Made by a program: the position numbers and the translations under genes
The notes under the pieces: model-generated
Database searches by the model: none
Told to the model about the DNA's origin: nothing
Seen by the model: the letters and a program-made list of their open reading frames with translations, nothing else
From: a virus
Lineage: Duplodnaviria > Heunggongvirae > Uroviricota > Caudoviricetes
Reading direction: 5' to 3' (one strand)
DNA length: 45,880 bases
Virus record (IMG/VR): IMGVR_UViG_2870484749_000003
Span: 1-45,880 of that record
Part shown: in pieces, positions 6,986 to 45,504 of the stretch
Layout: every line of letters starts with the position of its first letter
Position numbering within the stretch: the first letter of the stretch is position 1

Positions 6986-7678
6986 TTAATTGTGTCGCTT
7001 AAGGGTTTGTGACTGGCTGATTAAGACCTTTCCAAAGACCATAAACCGGTGTTCATTTTCGCTGGTAATTCCCCATTCACGGTAAATCTGGTTATCAGAA
7101 ATCACCAGTAGTTTGTCAGGTATCATTTGCAGTCGTTTGACATAAATTTTATCATCAAAACCAAATACATAGATACCATCTCCATCAAACTGATTGATAC
7201 TGACATCAACGAAGATGAGATCTCCTGGCTCAATGGTTGGACACATACTGTCCCCACGAACGTTGATAACTTTAATGTGATTGGCTGGCCGTCCGCCAAA
7301 CATCGATACAGCATTATCAGTTCTGTATTCAATGGCATGAATCACATCAATGACATCACCGCCCTGGATAAGGCCATTTCCCGCACTGGCACTGACATCC
7401 AGCATTTCAATACGGAATACATCCTTCACCTGCGCAACATCCTCACTAATACTGTTTTTACATACAGTATTACTTTTGACGTCTGAGGTAAAGAGATCAG
7501 CAATATCAACACCTAAGCTCCTGGCAATATTACTCAGGGCTTGTTCAGTGAATTGTTTCTGCTTACCTGTTTCCAGGCGTGAGATATTCGCCGCATCCAC
7601 TCCTATTGCTTCAGCGAGATCGGCGATTTTCATGTTCTTCGCCTGGCGAAGTTGTCTGACTCGGTTTCCTATGTTCAT
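6986..7678 (-). CDS. CI-like prophage repressor (HTH plus S24 LexA-like autopeptidase domain)
   Basis: N-terminal HTH (IADLAEAIGVDAANISRLETG); C-terminal GDSM serine and KR lysine motifs; possible Ala-Gly cleavage site in SASAGNG; divergent from the cro-like gene. Confidence 0.9.
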   Translation of the reverse strand: MNIGNRVRQLRQAKNMKIADLAEAIGVDAANISRLETGKQKQFTEQALSNIARSLGVDIADLFTSDVKSNTVCKNSISEDVAQVKDVFRIEMLDVSASAGNGLIQGGDVIDVIHAIEYRTDNAVSMFGGRPANHIKVINVRGDSMCPTIEPGDLIFVDVSINQFDGDGIYVFGFDDKIYVKRLQMIPDKLLVISDNQIYREWGITSENEHRFMVFGKVLISQSQTLKRHN

Positions 7679-9874: not shown

Positions 9875-10204
9875 ATGAGTCTTTTGAATGAAGTTCAGAA
9901 ATTCATTGAAGCCCATCCGGGCTGTACTTCCGGAGACATTGCGGATGCTTTTGCAGGTTACTCACGGCAGCGCGTTCTGCAGTCAGCAAGCAAGTTACGT
10001 CAGAGTGGGCGTGTGGCTCACCGTTGTGAAGGGGATACACGCAGACATTTCCCGCGCCTGACTGAGAGAGCGCAGGAGCCGGAACCACAACCAGTTCGTG
10101 AAACCAGACCTGTGCGCAATTTCTATGTCGGCACTAACGATTCCCGGGTGATTTTGTGCCTGACTCGCCAGGCGGAAAAACTGGTCAGGGAGATGGCGGC
10201 ATGA
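9875..10204 (+). CDS. hypothetical protein (possible winged-helix DNA-binding)
   Basis: ATG with GGGGG RBS; translationally coupled (ATGA) to the downstream gene. Confidence 0.5.
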   Translation: MSLLNEVQKFIEAHPGCTSGDIADAFAGYSRQRVLQSASKLRQSGRVAHRCEGDTRRHFPRLTERAQEPEPQPVRETRPVRNFYVGTNDSRVILCLTRQAEKLVREMAA

Positions 10205-10527
10205 CGACGTTAACTCAATGCCAGCAGCAGGTGCTGGATATGCTGATTTCTTACCAGAAAGAACGTGGCTTCCCGCCAACCAATCAGGAGGTGGCAACCA
10301 TGCTGGGATACCGTTCAGTGAATGCAGCGGTGGAGCATCTTCGCGCACTGGAGAAAAAAGGCGTCATCACGATAAAGCGTGGCGTGGCCCGGGGGATCAC
10401 GCTTCATACCGCAGTGAAGGACGACGACAGCGAAGCGGTCGGTATCATCCGCGCACTGCTTGCCGGTGAGGAGAACGCTAGGTTGCGTGCAGCCCACTGG
10501 TTACATGAGAGGGGCCTGAAAGTATGA
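10201..10527 (+). CDS. LexA N-terminal DNA-binding-domain-like protein lacking the S24 peptidase domain
   Basis: LTQCQQQVLDMLISYQKERGFPPTNQEVATMLGYRSVNAAVEHLRALEKKGVITIKRGVARGITL aligns with the LexA N-terminus ([65 protein letters not shown], from memory); only 108 aa. Confidence 0.7.
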   Translation: MTTLTQCQQQVLDMLISYQKERGFPPTNQEVATMLGYRSVNAAVEHLRALEKKGVITIKRGVARGITLHTAVKDDDSEAVGIIRALLAGEENARLRAAHWLHERGLKV

Positions 10528-13189: not shown

Positions 13190-14230
13190 GTGAACATTCA
13201 AGCAGTAGACATTTTTTGTGGCGCAGGGGGCTTAACTTTTGGGCTAAAAAAAGCCGGGATTGAAGTTTCTCATGGCATTGATATTGATGAGTCCTGCCGT
13301 TTCGCTATTGAGAGCAATAATCCCTTAACGAAGTTCATTAACCAGTCAGTTACTGAACTGCAATCCAGCGATGTGTCTGCTATGTTCAAGGAAGGAAATA
13401 TTAGATTACTTGCAGGCTGTGCCCCTTGCCAACCGTTTTCCAAGTATCGTAATCCAAATAGCAGAAAAGATGATACAAAGTGGCGTCTTTTATCTGAGTT
13501 TCAGAGGATTGTAAGTGATGTCATGCCAGAGCTTGTGACTATGGAAAATGTTCCTCAACTTAGAAATCATAAGGTTTTTGAAGAGTTTGTTAGTGTATTA
13601 AAGACTCTTGGGTATCATCTGTGGTACGACGTTGTAAAATGTTCCGAGTATGGCTTGCCTCAAAATAGACGTAGATTAATTCTAATTGGGTCCATATTGG
13701 GGCCAATCAGCCTTGATCAAAAAAAAGTAAGCCGTAAAGTTACAGTAAAGGATGCTATTGGTCAGTTGCCAAAAATAGGTGCAGGGGAGAAACTCGAAAG
13801 TGATCCATTGCATCGTTCGCCTAAATTAAGGGATATTAACCTTAAACGAATCTTGCACTCTTTACCAGGTGGTACGTGGGATGATTGGCCTGAAGAAATT
13901 AGAGCGGATTGCCATAAAAAGCATTCAGGTGCTACCTATAAAAGTGTTTATGGACGGATGGTTTGGGACGATACTAGTCCTACAATAACTACCCAATGTT
14001 ATGGATATGGTAATGGGCGATTCGGACATCCTGAGCAAAATAGAGCAATAACTTTGCGTGAAGCTGCTATTTTACAATCTTTTCCTATGGATTATAAATT
14101 TATTGGAAAAAATACGCCTTTTTCATTCCAAAAGTTAGGAACGATGATTGGTAATGCTGTTCCCCCTATAATTGGCCAAGTAATAGGGAGAACGTTTGTT
14201 AGGCATGTTGAGGGGATAAATATCCGTTAG
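13190..14230 (+). CDS. DNA (cytosine-5)-methyltransferase (Dcm-like)
   Basis: Canonical C5-MTase motifs: FCGAGG (I), GCAPCQPFS (IV, catalytic PC), ENV (VI), QNRRR (VIII), GNAVPP (X); GTG start with GGAG RBS; AT-rich by eye. Confidence 0.9.
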   Translation: MNIQAVDIFCGAGGLTFGLKKAGIEVSHGIDIDESCRFAIESNNPLTKFINQSVTELQSSDVSAMFKEGNIRLLAGCAPCQPFSKYRNPNSRKDDTKWRLLSEFQRIVSDVMPELVTMENVPQLRNHKVFEEFVSVLKTLGYHLWYDVVKCSEYGLPQNRRRLILIGSILGPISLDQKKVSRKVTVKDAIGQLPKIGAGEKLESDPLHRSPKLRDINLKRILHSLPGGTWDDWPEEIRADCHKKHSGATYKSVYGRMVWDDTSPTITTQCYGYGNGRFGHPEQNRAITLREAAILQSFPMDYKFIGKNTPFSFQKLGTMIGNAVPPIIGQVIGRTFVRHVEGINIR

Positions 14231-14888
14231 AGATAATATAATCTTCAGTTGAGTTTATTAATAAACGAAGATATAGATCAACTCTCTCTGCTCTAGACTT
14301 AACTTCTTCTAAGGGGTCAATTTGCCCCTTTTTAGAGAAGCTAGTACTTCCATGCGCGAGTTCGTTTCTGATATCCTTAAGCAAGTCTAAGTCAATACCA
14401 TTTCTACATTCAGGTGAGTTTGCGATAGTTATTCCGTAAGCCTGCGTTATTTTGTGTAATACAGGCTTGCAAACATTACCATTGAATTCTTTACGAATAT
14501 TCAATGAGGCTGAAATTATTCTTTTGGAAATGTCAGTGCCTATCTTTTTATAAAGGGATTGCCCTGTTTCATTATCTGAAACAATTCTATGTAATATATT
14601 TACTTGAAGCTTCTCCCTGAGTGATGCGTAATTCACCTCATTATCTTGTAAATGATCATAAATTGACTCGATGCAACCTCTGGCAGTATTTTCAACTTGA
14701 TTATATAGCATCATATGAACGGATGATTTTAAAATATTTACCCTTAGGATATTAGATTCTATTTCATCTTGATGCGCTTGCGGATCTAACTGCTGAGTAT
14801 GAATCTCTATAGATGATGCAAGAGAAAGCAGTTCCATAATGTCTCTTGCTCTTTCTTCATATTCATCTCGTAAATCAATTAGACTCAT
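14199..14888 (-). CDS. HEPN-like nuclease (resembles MAE_28990/MAE_18760 family)
   Basis: C-terminal Rx4H HEPN motif in DIRNELAHG; start 2 nt after the DUF262 stop; 3' end overlaps the convergent C5-MTase by 32 bp; AT-rich. Confidence 0.75.
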   Translation of the reverse strand: MSLIDLRDEYEERARDIMELLSLASSIEIHTQQLDPQAHQDEIESNILRVNILKSSVHMMLYNQVENTARGCIESIYDHLQDNEVNYASLREKLQVNILHRIVSDNETGQSLYKKIGTDISKRIISASLNIRKEFNGNVCKPVLHKITQAYGITIANSPECRNGIDLDLLKDIRNELAHGSTSFSKKGQIDPLEEVKSRAERVDLYLRLLINSTEDYIISNGYLSPQHA

Positions 14889-14890
14889 TT

Positions 14891-16051
14891 TTAAATCCCT
14901 AACAACTTATTTTTAACGTAAAAGATTCTGTTTTTTAGCTGGCTGGTATTGTTTGCACTATCAGCAGTAACAAGTGTTTCAAATTCCTCTTCAAATAGCC
15001 ATTCACCTACAGGTACGGCTGGACTCTGGAGTTGTGGGTTAGTTTTTAATGCAAGTGCAGTTCCCACGGCAATGGCTTCGTATCTGGCTCGTGGGGTGGT
15101 TTTACTTGTTGCGGTCTTTTTAAAGCCAATAGGGAAATGGGTAGCAACAAAAGCAAGCATCATTTCAAAATCATGTTTAAAATTATCAACATCTTGTTGA
15201 GTAGTCACAGCTGCTGCTTGTTCATTTAAATAATTATCAATAAAGGGACGGACAAATCCCTTATAGTTTTCTAAATCATTTAAATATGCAAAAAATCTCA
15301 AAACTAACTCACGATGATCGCCATTCGACCGTTTCCGGTCTGATAATGGAGCTAGTTGGGAAAAAAGTGAGTTTGTTGAGCATGGGGTCACAACATCTTT
15401 ATAGAACATTGAGGTAGCAGCATCTGAGCCATGCCTCACTTCCATCGCTTCTAATCTTTTAACACCTGAGTTGATCCTTTCAAATAAATCTCTTCTATGT
15501 TGTTCCTCAACATCACCTTTCAACTCAATAAATCTTAGTGAAGCTCTTAAAAATCTTCTTTGGCGGCTAGCTAAAAGATCTGAAAATTTGAAACCTTCTA
15601 AACTTTTAAGCTCTTTCAAATCCTTTAACTCAAATTGATCGTTCCAAAAATAATAAATAGAGCGTATCCGTTGTGAACCATCAATGATTTCTACCCTACC
15701 ATCTAATTCAGGGTCTTCATTAAATACATCAGCAATGTAAAGGTAAGGTATTGGAAAGTCTAATAGAATACTTTCTATAAAGCGAGAGGCTGTTTTTGTA
15801 TCCCACTTGTAATCACGTTGATAATCTGGAATAAAAAGCTCGTTTTTGTCATTTTCAATATTATCACCATACTTTTGAATAATGACTTCAACGGTCCACT
15901 CACGTACATTGTATCCAATGTTTCTCTGAGCGAGTCTGATTTCATTGTCAGCGGAAGCGGTTAAAGCTGCAATTTCAGCCTTTTTTCTGTTCTTAGCGTG
16001 TTCATCTTGTATCTGAGCAAGCTCTTCTTTGAGTTCTTTGAGTGTAGTCAT
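14891..16051 (-). CDS. DUF262 (ParB/Srx-like) domain protein
   Basis: IPDYQRDYKW and IDGSQR (DGQQR-type) DUF262 signatures; AAGGAA RBS; no recognisable DUF1524/HNH C-terminal domain; AT-rich. Confidence 0.8.
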   Translation of the reverse strand: MTTLKELKEELAQIQDEHAKNRKKAEIAALTASADNEIRLAQRNIGYNVREWTVEVIIQKYGDNIENDKNELFIPDYQRDYKWDTKTASRFIESILLDFPIPYLYIADVFNEDPELDGRVEIIDGSQRIRSIYYFWNDQFELKDLKELKSLEGFKFSDLLASRQRRFLRASLRFIELKGDVEEQHRRDLFERINSGVKRLEAMEVRHGSDAATSMFYKDVVTPCSTNSLFSQLAPLSDRKRSNGDHRELVLRFFAYLNDLENYKGFVRPFIDNYLNEQAAAVTTQQDVDNFKHDFEMMLAFVATHFPIGFKKTATSKTTPRARYEAIAVGTALALKTNPQLQSPAVPVGEWLFEEEFETLVTADSANNTSQLKNRIFYVKNKLLGI

Positions 16052-16643: not shown

Positions 16644-17696
16644 ATGAAAAATACTGTAAAAATAAACAGTGTTGATTTAATCAACGCTGATTGCCTGCAT
16701 TTTATTCAGTCCCTGCCTGATGATTCCATTGACCTGATTGTTACCGATCCGCCTTACTTCAAGGTGAAACCCAACGGTTGGGACAATCAGTGGAAAGGGG
16801 ACGAAGATTACCTTAAGTGGCTGGACCACTGTCTGGCCCAGTTCTGGCGGGTGTTGAAACCTGCCGGAAGCCTTTACCTGTTCTGTGGGCATCGCCTGGC
16901 ATCTGATATTGAGATCATGATGCGTGAACGTTTCAACGTGCTTAACCATATCATCTGGGCGAAGCCGTCCGGACGTTGGAATGGGTGTAATAAAGAAAGT
17001 CTGCGCGCATATTTTCCTGCCACAGAGCGCGTTCTGTTTGCTGAACATTACCAGGGGCCATATCGCGGCAAAAGTGACGGCTATGCGGCAAAAGAAAGGG
17101 AACTCAAACAGCACATAATGGCACCGCTGATATCGTATTTCAGGGATGCTCGTGCCGAACTGGGTATAACGGCAAAACAAATTGCCGAAGCCACAGGTAA
17201 GAAAAATATGGTTTCCCACTGGTTTGGTGCCAGTCAGTGGCAGTTGCCGAATGAGGCTGACTATCGGAAGTTACAGGCACTGTTTTCCCGTATAGCGGCA
17301 GAGAAGTTTCAGGAACAACAACTGGAACAACCACACCACCAGCTGGTGGCATCTTATGATTCACTGAATCGCAAATATTCTGAATTGCTGGATGAGTTTA
17401 AATCTCTCCGGCGCTATTTCTCCGTATCAGTCTCCGTGCCTTATACCGATGTCTGGATGCATAAACCCGTTCAGTTCTACCCGGGTAAACATCCGTGTGA
17501 GAAACCGGCGGATATGCTCAGGCAAATAATCAATGCCAGTAGTCGACCTGGTGATCTGGTTGCTGATTTTTTTATGGGATCCGGTTCCACAATAAAAGCA
17601 GCAATGGCGCTGGGGCGTCGGGCCTTAGGTGTTGAGCTTGAGTCAGAGCGGTTTAACCAGACAGTGAAAGAGATAAACGAGCTGGTGGGGAAATAA
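16644..17696 (+). CDS. DNA N6-adenine (or N4-cytosine) methyltransferase, beta-class
   Basis: DPPY catalytic motif near the N-terminus and FxGSGST SAM-binding motif near the C-terminus. Confidence 0.85.
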
Positions 17697-38892: not shown

Positions 38893-41800
38893 GTGAATAT
38901 GGCAGTAAAGATTTCAGGTGTACTGAAAGACGGTGCAGGTAAACCGGTACAGAACTGCACAATCCAGCTGAAAGCAAAACGTAACAGCACCACGGTGGTG
39001 GTGAACACGGTGGCCTCAGAAAATCCGGATGAAGCCGGGCGTTACAGCATGGACGTTGAGTACGGTCAGTACAGCGTTATTCTGTTGGTGGAAGGATTCC
39101 CGCCGTCACATGCCGGGACCATCACCGTGTATGAAGATTCCCGACCCGGTACGCTGAATGATTTTCTCGGTGCCATGACGGAGGATGATGCCCGTCCGGA
39201 GGCACTGCGCCGCTTTGAACTGATGGTGGAAGAGGTGGCGCGTAACGCGTCCGCAGTGGCGCAGAACACAGCAGCCGCGAAGAAGTCAGCCAGCGATGCC
39301 GGCACATCAGCCCGTGAGGCGGCAACCCGTGCGACTGATGCTGCAGGCTCAGCACGTGCAGCCAGCACGTCAGCCGGACAGGCCGCGTCGTCGGCTCAGT
39401 CAGCGTCTTCCAGCGCAGGAACGGCATCAACAAAGGCCACTGAAGCATTAAAAAGTGCTGCCGCCGCAGAGTCTTCAAAAAGCGCGGCAGCCACCAGTGC
39501 CGGTGCGGCGAAAACGTCAGAAACGAATGCCGCAGCGTCACAAAAATCTGCGGCCACATCTGCATCCACCGCGACCACGAAAGCGTCAGAAGCTGCCACC
39601 TCAGCCCGGGATGCGTCGGCTTCAAAAGTGGCGGCAAAATCATCAGAAACGAGCGCAGCCTCGAGCGCCGGCAGTGCAGCTTCCTCGGCAACGGCGGCAG
39701 GAAATTCCGCGAAGGCCGCAAAAACGTCTGAGACGAATGCGGATAACAGCGCACAGGCGGCAGCAGACTCACAAACTGCATCGGCAAACTCCGCGACAGC
39801 AGCCAAAAAATCAGAAACCAACGCGAAAAATAGTGAGGCAGCAGCAAAGGTCAGCGAAACCAACGCTAAAGCGTCAGAGAACAAGGCGAAAGAATATCTC
39901 GACAAGGTCGGGGGACTCGTCAGCCCGATGACGCAATACGATTGGCCCGTTGTTACTGGTAATGAGTCTTTTTACATCAAGATCGCGAAACTTTCCGATC
40001 CCGGAAGCAACAATTGCCATGTAACGCTAATGGTTACTAACGGCGGTAACTACGGCTCCCCTTACGGAAACATTGACTTTATCGAGATCTCGGCGCGCGG
40101 TCTGCCTTCTTCGCTTACTGCGGATAATGTTTCTCGTCATCTGAGTATACGCCGCTTAGGGTCAACCGGGCTGACCGATAACAACCAGATGCGTTACGGC
40201 CTGGTTAAAGGTGACGGCTTTATTGAGGTTTGGGCCTTCCAGCGTGCATTTATCAACGGCGCAAAGGTTGCGGTACTGGCGCAGACGGCACGCACGGAAT
40301 TATACATTCCAGACGGATTTGTTAAGCAAACCGCCGCGCCTTCTGGATATGTTGAAAGCCCCGTTGTAAGGATTTACGACCAGTTAAACAAGCCGACTAA
40401 AGCAGATTTGGGTCTTTCTAATGCTATGCTTACAGGCGCTTTCGGTCTTGGCGGTAGCGGGATATCAACAACCGGCAAGATGAGCGATGTAGAGATCTTA
40501 AAAGCTCTGCGTGACAAAGGTGGTCATTTCTGGCGCGGTGATAAGCCGACCGGAAGTACGGCGACCATTTATAGCCACGGTTCTGGTATATTCTCGCGGT
40601 GCGGCGATACGTGGTCGGCGATCAATATCGACTACGGAACAGGTAAAGTCAAGGTTTACGCTGGTAACGATGGTGGACTTAATAATGGTAATTTTTCCGT
40701 CAATGAGCTATACGGAACCAAAAATAAGCCGTCGAAATCGGACGTTGGACTTGGCAACGTAACGAACGATGCGCAGGTGAAAAAATCCGGCGATAATATG
40801 TCTGGAGACCTGGCGATCATTAAAGGAACACCGTCACTCTTCCTGCGGTCAAAAAGTGGAACCGCCCATGTATGGTTCCAAAATGAGGATCAGTCGGAAC
40901 GCGGCGTTATTTGGGCGCCTACAAATACTGATACGCTTGGCGAAGTTCACATCAGGGCTAAAAACGCAAAAGGCGAATCAAGGGGTGATTTTATTGTTCG
41001 TCACGACGGGAGGGTAGAATCCCGTGATCTAAAAGTAACGTACAAAATCAGCGCAGCCACCGCAGAATTTGCAAACACATCAACTAACCCGCTTGATAAC
41101 ACTTTAAAAATTAGCGGTCCACAGCATACGCCGTTACTTTTAACGCGTTCTGGTTCTTCTGAAAATGTGTCCATTGGGTTTAAGTTAGACAACATGAACC
41201 CAAAGTATCTTGGAATTGATACTAATGGGGATCTGGCTTTTGGTGAGAGTCCTGATCAGAAACAAAACAGCAAATTGATCACGCAAGCGAAACTCGACAA
41301 GGGATTAACGATTGGTGGTCAACTGGCTTTCAAAGGTACGACAGCGTTTTCAGCCGCTGCTACGTTCAGTGCCGGGATAGCAGGAGCCATCGATCCGGAA
41401 GACATTGGCGGCCAGACGGTTGATCTTAACAACCTGACCATCATCTCAGATGTCGGGGCAATTAAATATTATTATTGTCCAACCATTGGAGGTGGTGCAA
41501 ATATCACCAACAAGCCTGACGGCGTAAACGGTAACTTTTTGCTCCGTGTAGAGTCGACTCGCAAAGTTTCTGCTTCGGATTATGCGAACATGCAAACGCT
41601 GATCAGCAACGACACAAAACGTATATACGTTCGCTTTGTTGTTGGTGGAAGCTGGGCAGCGTGGAGTCAGGTTGTTGTTTCCGGATGGAATCAGGATGTA
41701 ACCGTCAGGTCGTTAACCTCGACGACTCCATCAAAATTAGGTGGCGGGCGGATTGATGTGCTTGGAAGTACGTCAGATTATGGCAGCATGAATTGTACCG

Positions 41801-42672: not shown

Positions 42673-42855
42673 TATCCTTCAAGCTCTGAAGGAGGCTGTT
42701 CCCGGTACGTTCAGACTGTTGTTGAGCTGGAGATCGCAACGGAGGAAGAGACATCGTTACTGGCGGCATGGAAAAAGTATCGGGTGTTGCTGAACCGTGT
42801 TGATACATCAACTGCACCTGATATTGAGTGGCCGGAAGAACCAGACACAATGTAA
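42673..42855 (+). pseudogene. 3' remnant of a tail fibre assembly (tfa) gene, no start codon, in frame directly after the stf stop
   Basis: Encodes ...[44 protein letters not shown], the conserved Tfa C-terminal motif; no ATG/GTG start after the stf stop. Confidence 0.6.
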
Positions 42856-42902
42856 GCGAAAAAGAAAAACCGCAGACACGACGTATGCAGGACGTGCTGC
42901 GG
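42856..42902 (-). terminator. rho-independent terminator downstream of the DinI-like gene
   Basis: Imperfect hairpin ccgcagacacgacg...cgtgctgcgg followed on the minus strand by tttttctttttc. Confidence 0.5.
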
Positions 42903-42970
42903 TTGGCTGGTGAACTTTCGATAGTGCGAGTATTGAATGATTTCCAGCCGTTACCGATTTTACGTGTTTA

Positions 42971-43219
42971 TTAGTGAACAAACCACTCGTCAGCAGACTC
43001 CCAGGTATCTTTCAGAGTCTCCTGAACAAATGTTTTTGCAGAATCTTTATCTGCGGTGCGTGTAACAGAAAGGCCATCGTTGCTGGTGGCTTTTACGATC
43101 ACCTCTACATCGTCATAACGTTTACTGATGCGTCGGGTTAATTCTTCCTTTAACGCATCCACAGCACCGGTTGGCATTTTAGTCATTTTCTCTTTGGCTA
43201 TGCAGATTTCAATACGCAT
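42971..43219 (-). CDS. DinI-family protein
   Basis: [37 protein letters not shown]...[17 protein letters not shown] resembles DinI (81 aa) as recalled; two SOS boxes upstream. Confidence 0.8.
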
Positions 43220-43232
43220 AAAAGTCCCTCTA

Positions 43233-43280
43233 TACTGTGTTTGTATACAGTGTTATTTTTAACTGTATGGATAAACAGTA
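43233..43280. promoter_or_regulatory. two tandem LexA (SOS) boxes in the promoter region of the DinI-like gene
   Basis: tACTGTgtttgtatACAGtg (43233-43252) and aACTGTatggataaACAGta (43261-43280) both fit CTGT-N8-ACAG. Confidence 0.65.
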
Positions 43281-44378
43281 TCAAGGGGTCTTATTTCTGC
43301 TCCTTTGGAGCTCTTCAAAACGATTATGTAAAGATTTCGGATACAGTTCGGTATATACCTGCCATAGCACGTTTAATGAACGATGCCCTGTAACCTGGGC
43401 TACTTCCTCAATACTAAAACCAGCCTCAAATAAGCGACTTGCCCCTTCTCTACGCAAATCATGGTATCGCAGATCCTTAATACCTAATTTGCTTCTTACC
43501 CTCTGAAATCCCGCAGTAACAGAAGTGCTGTTATATGGAAAAATGAATTCCGATTTTTTGGGCTGTCGTTGGACGATATCCCAGGCTTCCCCAAGCAAGG
43601 CTACTTTCATGTGGTTGCCTTCCTTTTTGCGTGGATCTTTCCTGTCTCTTACGAGTATAGATTTTTGTTCCTGGTCGAGATCTTCCCATCGTAACCTGCA
43701 TACTTCTCCGATTCGCATACAGGACCACACAGAAAATTTGAGGATATCAACGAACGGAATTTTTGAGCATTTATGAGTAGATCGTTGTTGAAGGCCTTCA
43801 ATGAGCATGTCCAGTTCATCAGATGCTGGTCTACGATTACGACGGTTTGATTTACCAATCAAACCAAGTTTAAGTAGATATGGACGAGCACTTTTCGCCG
43901 GGTTTGATGTGTAATTAATTCCGTATACAGGTTTGGCCGCATCCAGAACACTGCCAAGATAACTAACATCGTGGCTGACTGTTGCTGGACCTGCGCCAGC
44001 GTTGTTTCTTAGCCTGCAATGTTCAATTACGTCATTTTCTGTCAGTTCAGATAGTTTGATCGCGGAGATGTCACTATCCATAAGCAGTTCCAGCACATAT
44101 CTTTTAGTACGGCCTGCTTTACCTCCGGCATTTGGGTCATTTAAATATTTGTGTAGTAAGTCACGGACTGTAAGTCCGTCAACTGCATTTGATGATGGAA
44201 TGCCATATAGATCTAATTCCATCACTTTCTGTGTGCCCCATGTTTTGGCATGAGCATGTTTAGGGAATGTTTTGCTTTCCCTGTAAGTGATAACACCTTT
44301 TTCTTTGATAATCACATTACAGCGATAGCGTGGTGTGCCATCGGATTTTAGTCGTTTCTCTATGTTATAGTACGCCAT
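43281..44378 (-). CDS. int: tyrosine site-specific integrase (dusA-associated type)
   Basis: 365 aa with C-terminal R...HxLR...Y catalytic pattern (RYHDLRREGASRL...HRSLNVLWQVY); adjacent to and divergent from dusA. Confidence 0.9.
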   Translation of the reverse strand: MAYYNIEKRLKSDGTPRYRCNVIIKEKGVITYRESKTFPKHAHAKTWGTQKVMELDLYGIPSSNAVDGLTVRDLLHKYLNDPNAGGKAGRTKRYVLELLMDSDISAIKLSELTENDVIEHCRLRNNAGAGPATVSHDVSYLGSVLDAAKPVYGINYTSNPAKSARPYLLKLGLIGKSNRRNRRPASDELDMLIEGLQQRSTHKCSKIPFVDILKFSVWSCMRIGEVCRLRWEDLDQEQKSILVRDRKDPRKKEGNHMKVALLGEAWDIVQRQPKKSEFIFPYNSTSVTAGFQRVRSKLGIKDLRYHDLRREGASRLFEAGFSIEEVAQVTGHRSLNVLWQVYTELYPKSLHNRFEELQRSRNKTP

Positions 44379-44463: not shown

Positions 44464-44570
44464 AAAATGCACGATAATCATGAAACACAAAAAATTAATC
44501 AAACCAGCGTGATGCCTGAAAAAACTGGTGTTTACTGGAATTCTCGGTTTAGCATTGCTCCTATGCTCGA
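44464..44570. other. attR: prophage-supplied replacement 5' end of dusA, homologous to attL
   Basis: See attL; similarity to 1067-1174 ends at atgctcga (44563-44570). Confidence 0.75.
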
Positions 44571-45504
44571 CTGGACGGACAGACATTGCCGCTATTTCTT
44601 GCGTCTGCTTTCCCGCAATACGTTGCTGTATACCGAAATGGTGACCACAGGGGCGATTATTCACGGTAAAGGTGATTATCTGGCGTACAGTGAAGAAGAA
44701 CATCCGGTAGCGTTGCAACTGGGCGGTAGCGATCCGGCGGCGCTGGCGCAGTGTGCAAAGCTGGCAGAAGCGCGCGGATATGATGAGATCAACCTGAATG
44801 TCGGCTGCCCGTCTGACCGGGTGCAGAACGGCATGTTTGGTGCGTGTCTGATGGGTAATGCGCAGCTGGTTGCCGACTGCGTGAAAGCGATGCGCGATGT
44901 GGTGTCGATTCCGGTGACGGTGAAAACGCGTATTGGCATCGACGACCAGGACAGCTATGAATTTCTCTGCGATTTCATCAATACCGTTTCCGGCAAAGGC
45001 GAGTGTGAGATGTTCATCATCCACGCACGTAAAGCCTGGCTTTCGGGGTTAAGCCCGAAAGAAAACCGTGAAATCCCGCCGCTCGATTATCCGCGTGTGT
45101 ATCAACTGAAGCGTGACTTTCCGCATCTGACAATGTCGATTAACGGTGGTATCAAGTCGCTGGAAGAGGCCAAAGCACACCTGCAACATATGGATGGCGT
45201 GATGGTCGGGCGCGAGGCGTATCAGAATCCGGGTATTCTGGCGGCGGTAGACCGGGAGATCTTTGGTTCCTCGGATACCGATGCCGATCCGGTGGCGGTA
45301 GTGCGCGCCATGTATCCGTACATTGAGCGTGAACTCAGCCAGGGGACGTATCTCGGCCATATTACCCGGCATATGTTGGGCTTGTTCCAGGGTATTCCTG
45401 GCGCGCGGCAGTGGCGGCGTTATTTAAGTGAAAATGCCCATAAAGCGGGTGCAGACATTAATGTGCTGGAACACGCGCTCAAACTGGTGGCGGATAAGCG
45501 TTAA
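44467..45504 (+). CDS. dusA: tRNA-dihydrouridine synthase A with prophage-derived N-terminal codons
   Basis: 345 aa Dus-family TIM-barrel protein ([15 protein letters not shown], catalytic Cys region [11 protein letters not shown]); followed by pspG as in E. coli. Confidence 0.95.

Follow-up and report, generated by a model that had tools for sequence, protein, structure and literature searches.

The window, that is, the whole stretch of 45,880 nucleotides analysed here, is a lambdoid E. coli prophage in the 5' end of dusA. On its minus strand a dinI-like gene lies directly downstream of the co-directional integrase gene, and the 61 bp that separate the two genes contain two putative LexA operators. 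The features of this locus are given below in the direction of transcription; the heterology index (HI) used to grade the operators is defined in the next section.

43281-44378, minus strand: tyrosine integrase gene of the dusA-inserting type, 365 codons (Pfam Phage_integrase; stop codon of the reading frame at 43283-43281)
43279-43284, minus strand: predicted -35 hexamer TTGATA, from a promoter scan (TTGACA in most relatives), with the integrase stop TGA (43283-43281) inside it
43261-43280, minus strand: distal putative LexA operator (SOS box 2), AACTGTATGGATAAACAGTA, core CTGT-N8-ACAG at 43263-43278, HI 4.7
43255-43261, minus strand: predicted -10 element, TAAAAA (17-bp spacer) or AAAAAT (18-bp spacer), invariant in 30 of 30 variants
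43233-43252, minus strand: proximal putative LexA operator (SOS box 1), TACTGTGTTTGTATACAGTG, core CTGT-N8-ACAG at 43235-43250, HI 3.9
43226-43230, minus strand: Shine-Dalgarno sequence GAGGG, 6 nt 5' of the ATG, from reading of the sequence
42971-43219, minus strand: dinI-like gene, 82 aa (Pfam PF06183, 1.1e-19; PHROG 189; match to 1GHH/7YWA)
42856-42902, minus strand: predicted intrinsic terminator of the dinI transcript, a hairpin at 42902-42870 followed by UUUUUCUUUUU (from folding, -15.8 kcal/mol)

Read in the sense of dinI, SOS box 1 is CACTGTATACAAACACAGTA and SOS box 2 is TACTGTTTATCCATACAGTT, and the minus strand between 43200 and 43300 runs ...AAGACCCC-TTGATA-CTGTTTATCCATACAGT-TAAAAAT-AA-CACTGTATACAAACACAGTA-TA-GAGGG-ACTTTT-ATG. 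The product of the downstream gene matches the Pfam DinI profile (PF06183) over positions 1-63 of 63 with 70.9 bits against a cut-off of 24.2, and it matches PHROG 189, 'RecA filament binding protein DinI', at 5.7e-31. Its residues 1-81 align to residues 1-79 of E. coli DinI 1GHH (1GHH/7YWA, 3.7e-13), and it carries the acidic C-terminal helix motif TWESADEWF, within a comparison of 15 residues with EILQETWESADDWFV in DinI 1GHH. The original prediction had called this protein DinI-like; the Pfam match (1e-19) and the full-length match to 1GHH confirm the predicted product, by homology, as a bona fide DinI-family protein.

The terminator hairpin begins 69 nt past the dinI stop codon, with no credible open reading frame between them. 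With the hairpin so close behind the stop codon, the dinI transcription unit is predicted to be monocistronic; the next gene is convergent. A TTG-initiated frame of 57 aa at 42808-42981, considered as a Gifsy-like antirepressor, runs through the terminator hairpin and was judged spurious from this position. The convergent sequence at 42675-42857 (plus strand) is apparently only a C-terminal remnant of tfa (tail-fibre assembly), as read from the sequence; it lies downstream of the gene for a 1259-aa side tail fibre and ends at a bidirectional-looking hairpin which it has in common with dinI.

The prophage is a close relative of mEp460 with the same immunity region. It is flanked by yjbM on the left and by dusA-pspG on the right, with dusA at 44467-45504, and an identical 16-bp core, ATGCCTGAAAAAACTG, is present at 1116-1131 and at 44512-44527. 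At the boundaries (1075-1180 and 44467-44527) the displaced original 5' end of dusA is found on the left and a phage-supplied 5' end is fused to dusA on the right, a layout typical of dusA-inserting integrases. Between the nin region and the lysis genes, at 13190-16051, lies a defence-like cargo cluster which is absent at that position in mEp460 and includes the following genes.

13190-14230, plus strand: C-5 cytosine methylase gene
14199-14888, minus strand: HEPN (MAE_28990-type) protein gene, convergent with the methylase gene
14891-16051, minus strand: GmrSD_N/DUF262 protein gene, paired with the HEPN gene

The two LexA boxes and the predicted promoter

Both boxes have an exact CTGT-N8-ACAG core within a 20-bp palindrome (the consensus for comparison being TACTGTATATATATACAGTA), and their flanks, TA/AA...TG/TA, are near the LexA consensus. 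Counted from the ATG of the dinI-like gene (43219), box 1 occupies -14 to -33 and box 2 occupies -42 to -61. Two CTGT-N8-ACAG sites upstream of this start had been predicted before, and the span then given, 43233-43280, proved exact to the base.

The sites were scored with the Berg-von Hippel heterology index, using a matrix built from 18 proven E. coli K-12 operators (PMC3009722, Table 4). With this home-made 18-site matrix, which is not the Lewis/Fernandez de Henestrosa matrix and gives values not directly comparable with published ones, the HI of 3.9 and 4.7 of the two boxes fall inside the leave-one-out range of the 18 proven operators themselves (0.6-12.6). The matrix scoring that had been proposed as a check of the prediction thus places both boxes at the quality of proven operators. 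Only four sites in the window have an HI below 7 (2.1-5.3), the next best scoring 11.3, and 200 random windows generated by a first-order Markov model contained no site below 7, their minimum being 7.36. The CTGT-N8-ACAG pattern itself was observed four times in the window against 0.55 expected, a number reached in 0 of 100 shuffles. A chance origin of the two boxes is excluded.

A sigma-70 promoter is predicted on the minus strand with a match of 9/12 at an 18-bp spacer. The distal box fills the spacer between the -35 and -10 elements of this predicted promoter, while the proximal box starts 3-4 nt past the -10 element and covers the predicted transcription start. A promoter has been annotated by the depositors at the same place in the records of mEp460 and VT1-Sakai. 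The boxes had also been described as abutting the integrase stop, and the TGA at 43283-43281 does directly adjoin box 2; this is because the reading frame of the dusA-type integrase terminates at the TGA contained in TTGA(C/T)A.

The centres of the two boxes are 28 bp apart, or about 2.7 helical turns, so that LexA dimers would be placed on different faces of the helix and cooperative binding is not obviously favoured. The lexA gene also has two boxes, at about 21 bp centre to centre against the 28 bp found at the phage dinI gene. Chromosomal E. coli dinI and the classical SOS genes with several operators (lexA, recN, colicin genes) have the same operator consensus and the same logic of operators placed over the promoter, and chromosomal DinI belongs to the same protein family. 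Chromosomal dinI has one box, ACCTGTATAAATAACCAGTA, in the K-12 operator list (PMC3009722).

Conservation and mobility of the dinI module

Conservation was assessed across 71 related loci whose upstream sequence extends to 72 nt or more, representing 30 distinct variants. Both boxes are kept in all 71 loci. The CTGT and ACAG of the proximal box and the -10 element never vary among the 30 variants, whereas spacer and flank positions do, and the boxes hold a fixed register with the -35 element, the -10 element and the ATG in all contexts. The distal box is weakened in some relatives, reading CTGG...ACAG in the VT1-Sakai/Stx type and CTGG...ACAA in BP-4795 (HI about 9.5). The two-box layout is found at the same distances in diverged members of the clade, namely PhiR12_2 (71% protein identity), P-EibC (63%) and BP-4795 (60%), and it is specific to that clade: no box precedes the gene in a Yersinia homologue, a single one is present in a Klebsiella relative (68% identity), and the 77-aa dinI type of Gifsy, mEp237 and SEN34, located in the nin region, carries one strong box at about 19-20 nt upstream of the ATG. 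Scans of viral and genome contigs with the DinI protein returned only copies of 96-100% identity and served for the conservation counts, not for diversity, which was sampled by tblastn against a phage collection and from ten fetched loci.

A 541-bp query around the boxes gave at least a partial match in 5,244 of 5,426 complete E. coli genomes and in 217 phage records. Most of the sampled matches of 80-90% identity among the 5,244 genomes correspond to the segment 42882-43028, which covers the 3' end of dinI and the terminator region and has about 86% identity to an unannotated stretch in a very large proportion of the 5,426 genomes. Alignments between phages with unrelated neighbours run from the terminator to the -35 hexamer and there abruptly end; these neighbours are the yehV att site in VT1-Sakai, ssrA in CP-1639, cdt genes in cdtI and nleC in Stx2 phages. 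As homology extends only up to the -35 hexamer, the promoter and operators travel with the dinI gene, and promoter, both boxes, gene and terminator form a mobile cassette inherited as a unit. The unannotated stretch matched by 42882-43028 is, in E. coli K-12 ER3413 (at 304.8 kb), a decayed dinI-like pseudogene that has no LexA box and lies immediately upstream of ykgJ. In VT1-Sakai a ykgJ-like gene lies downstream of dinI, and for this reason ykgJ probably sits on the fossil of a phage dinI module.

The closest relative of the locus is in mEp460 (JQ182728), where gene mEp460_021 and the whole dinI-integrase junction are 98% identical to the window. The two phages share the integrase, the CI immunity region, the LexA-domain protein described below and four LexA boxes; they differ in the tail-fibre region and also beyond the late regulator, the site of the Dcm methylase gene and the HEPN/GmrSD pair in the window. 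The mEp460 record has the promoter annotated and no LexA sites. The orthologous module of VT1-Sakai, H0001 (AP000400), has about 90% nucleotide identity over gene and promoter and shares the -35 and -10 elements, the proximal box 14-33 nt before the ATG and the position at the prophage end. Its record carries the annotations 'putative SOS box' and 'putative promoter of H0001 and H0002', the SOS box annotation covering the proximal box only. That proximal box is weaker than ours (HI 8.5), and the distal one is degenerate (CTGG...ACAG, HI 9.5). The VT1-Sakai module lies beside the yehV att site and is followed by the ykgJ-like gene, whereas in the window it lies beside the dusA-type integrase gene and is followed directly by the terminator.

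The dinI homologues of Gifsy-1, -2 and -3 (Lemire, Figueroa-Bossi and Bossi, 2011; Merida-Floriano et al., 2021) resemble the locus in that each is a DinI-family gene of a prophage with a LexA box immediately in front of it. Their products, of 77 aa and about 42% identity, form a separate clade; the genes are located in the nin region, with a single box 19-20 nt before the ATG. The Gifsy dinI is the first gene of an operon with a phage-inducing antirepressor (gfoA/gftA) and an irsA homologue, neither of which is found here. The locus is not an operon of the Gifsy type, because it has no antirepressor, has a different location and belongs to a phage with a predicted cleavable CI.

Alternative readings and further LexA boxes in the phage

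The phage encodes a LexA-like protein of its own, with which the original prediction had suggested that the dinI-like gene might act together. The gene, at 10201-10527 (plus strand) between a Dam-like methylase gene and rusA, encodes 108 aa that amount to a LexA DNA-binding domain alone, without the S24 protease/dimerisation domain. The protein matches Pfam LexA_DNA_bind (4e-19) and PHROG 362 and is about 50% identical to residues 1-70 of E. coli LexA. It occurs in 63 phage records, among them SfII, SfIV, SfV, cdtI, mEp460 and Stx2c phages, and its orthologue in mEp460 is annotated 'LexA DNA binding domain protein'; our searches found no described function for this 108-aa protein. Its recognition helix reads S-V-N-A-A-V-E-H-L against S-P-N-A-A-E-E-H-L in LexA. 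The comparison of DNA contacts residue by residue refers to the LexA-DNA crystal structure (3JSO). With a recognition helix so close to that of LexA, binding of CTGT-type sites by the 108-aa protein is conceivable.

It could accordingly be proposed that the two boxes are mainly operators for this phage protein and not for host LexA. An uncleavable product of the early lytic operon, it would bind SOS-type operators again once host LexA is gone, repressing the dinI promoter or else, after the example of GIL01 gp6, activating it. Besides the LexA_DNA_bind domain with its nearly conserved recognition helix, this proposal can draw on the four strong LexA-type boxes of this phage, all conserved in mEp460, and on the observation that the boxes are stronger where the paralogue is present (mEp460, cdtI, 2H10, PhiR63_1, Stx2c) than in the VT1-Sakai/BP-4795 types, a difference that is confounded by phylogeny. 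There is also a precedent in Bacillus phage GIL01, where the truncated LexA homologue gp6 works on a promoter that carries LexA boxes in tandem (PMC6182141). Promoter P3 of GIL01 resembles the present case in its tandem LexA boxes and in the phage-encoded protein with a LexA DNA-binding domain; GIL01, however, lacks a dedicated repressor, requires gp7 as co-repressor and drives its late genes from P3 (PMC6182141), whereas the phage in the window has a CI/Cro pair and a promoter that drives dinI only, and action of its paralogue on the boxes is hypothetical.

The distribution of the two elements argues against this proposal. The dinI module with both boxes is present in 133 phage records and the paralogue in 63, and membership differs: VT1-Sakai, Stx1a/Stx2a phages and BP-4795 have the module and are not among the hits for the paralogue, while SfII, SfIV and SfV are paralogue carriers. 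With the module in about twice as many phage records as the paralogue, the boxes are maintained without it, and the lack of co-distribution gives no support to the idea that the protein at 10201 acts together with the dinI-like gene. The 108-aa protein also lacks the C-terminal dimerisation domain of LexA needed for tight binding to a palindrome and has Val in place of Glu44 of the LexA recognition helix; host LexA, for its part, is there at all times, and the boxes match its consensus. We therefore consider it improbable that the boxes serve mainly the phage protein. The same low standing is given to the wider idea of a phage-wide LexA circuit, in which the paralogue would take over the four boxes and the host SOS operators after LexA destruction. 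If such a circuit did exist, the paralogue would renew the repression of dinI and of the SOS regulon or, on the model of GIL01 gp6, activate some of the sites.

Still less probable is the reading in which the LexA sites are mainly a transcriptional barrier at the end of int that stops read-through, dinI being in effect part of an int-dinI co-transcript. The two genes are co-directional and 61 bp apart, a terminator scan of the gap found none, and box 2 abuts the int stop, all as this reading would have it. The same promoter and boxes, however, precede dinI in phages with no upstream integrase or other co-directional gene (VT1-Sakai, cdtI, CP-1639, Stx2 phages), and the -35 and -10 elements are conserved, so that a roadblock would be at most an added local consequence. 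That the palindromes are chance or structural features of the prophage end (recombination or IHF-type sites) with no LexA role can hardly be maintained, although the dinI module usually lies near phage attachment sites, since no random window gave one comparable site, let alone two in 48 bp, the att core is here separated from the boxes by the whole 1.1-kb integrase gene, and the boxes keep their register with the -35 element, the -10 element and the ATG.

The best LexA box of the window, TACTGTTTTTACATACAGTA (HI 2.1), is located elsewhere: it spans 7450-7469 within the cI-like repressor gene (minus strand, 6986-7678), where the sequence codes for the linker that joins the HTH and S24 domains. 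The box is also kept in mEp460 and in seven diverged cI homologues of about 67-93% nucleotide identity, the compared set including SfII, ST64B, two Klebsiella phages, Citrobacter phiNP and the E. coli phage Eeyore and spanning E. coli, Shigella, Salmonella, Klebsiella and Citrobacter. These homologues were taken from fetched phage records, as the alignment-based scan gave near-identical loci only. TACTGTA and CAGT are invariant among them and form the best-conserved block of a variable linker, synonymous positions included. A simple scan found no promoter beside this box, and no description of a LexA box within cI was found. A roadblock and an SOS-controlled internal or antisense promoter are both possibilities for this box, which is a better lead than the boxes of dinI. 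The fourth LexA-type box, TACTGTAAAAATAAACAGTG (16652-16671, HI 5.3), lies over codons 3-9 of an N6/N4 DNA methylase gene (16644-17696, plus strand) in the late region, just upstream of the lysis genes, and is kept in mEp460 at 41021-41040.

Proposed control of the dinI-like gene and its meaning for prophage induction

The 48-bp stretch 43233-43280 is very probably the operator region of a sigma-70 promoter that LexA represses and from which the prophage dinI-like gene is transcribed on its own. LexA control and SOS-induced expression of this gene had been the core of the original prediction, and both are well supported in silico and by homology: the sites are of operator quality, they overlap the predicted promoter, they are conserved, the VT1-Sakai record annotates an SOS box, and the Gifsy genes offer a precedent. 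For the dinI homologues of Gifsy-1, -2 and -3 LexA control has been proven, with an induction of 4.6-23-fold by nalidixic acid (PMC3121763; PMC8072944).

The analysis shows the sequence features, their statistical significance, their conservation and the joint inheritance of promoter, boxes, gene and terminator; from these we infer LexA occupancy, SOS induction and RecA binding and, most tentatively, the direction and size of any effect on prophage induction. In the undamaged lysogen, dimers of host LexA would sit on both operators, between the -35 and -10 elements and over the transcription start, and would block RNA polymerase independently of the phage CI. Upon DNA damage RecA would be activated, LexA would cleave itself and both operators would clear, allowing the synthesis of a short monocistronic mRNA composed of a leader of about 30 nt, the 82-aa reading frame and the intrinsic terminator. 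The DinI-like protein would then build up early in the SOS response, again independently of CI, and may attach to RecA filaments by its acidic C-terminal helix, in the way known for E. coli DinI. The most likely outcome would be that the co-protease activity of RecA is modulated, which would alter when, or at what threshold, the prophage is induced and would affect other RecA-dependent cleavages too.

In the CI of this phage, Ala99-Gly100, Ser144 and Lys181 belong to an S24 self-cleavage domain. Given this domain, the Ala-Gly site and the Ser/Lys dyad, inactivation of CI should depend on RecA filaments, the target of DinI, which makes the idea of threshold tuning a reasonable one; that the dinI-like gene tunes the induction threshold of the prophage is thus plausible. 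E. coli DinI is said either to stabilise RecA filaments or to inhibit the co-protease activity, depending on its concentration, and with such opposite actions the sign of an effect on induction is not fixed. In the one genetic test that our search found, non-polar deletions of dinI in the Gifsy phages did not significantly change induction; the Gifsy repressors are not cleaved and antirepressors are used instead (PMC3121763). Our literature search found no binding (EMSA or ChIP) or expression data for the E. coli dinI module and, for E. coli phage DinI and its expression in EHEC, only speculation or data on chromosomal dinI. A bioRxiv paper on the 'loss of lexA and dinI' was set aside as evidence on phage dinI, as it concerns the chromosomal genes.

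Taken as a whole the feature is real but ordinary and was largely anticipated in E. coli lambda-like and Shiga-toxin phages. It adds an instance to the known class of prophage dinI homologues under LexA control, with modest additions in the second operator within the promoter spacer, the clade-specific layout of two operators and the inheritance as one cassette. The annotation of a widespread module, present in mEp460-like phages, cdtI and many Stx1 and Stx2 phages, is tidied: it has two putative LexA operators where VT1-Sakai had one annotated, and the boundary of the unit lies at the -35 hexamer. Emergence of quinolone resistance mutations has been linked to a DinI-like prophage gene (PMC10575684). 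Shiga-toxin phages, among which the module is found, are induced by SOS-triggering antibiotics with release of the toxin, and an early, CI-independent and SOS-induced modulator of RecA could shift the induction threshold of such toxin phages, a speculation that the authors of Stx-phage genomes have also made for a DinI-like modulator (PMC8456039).
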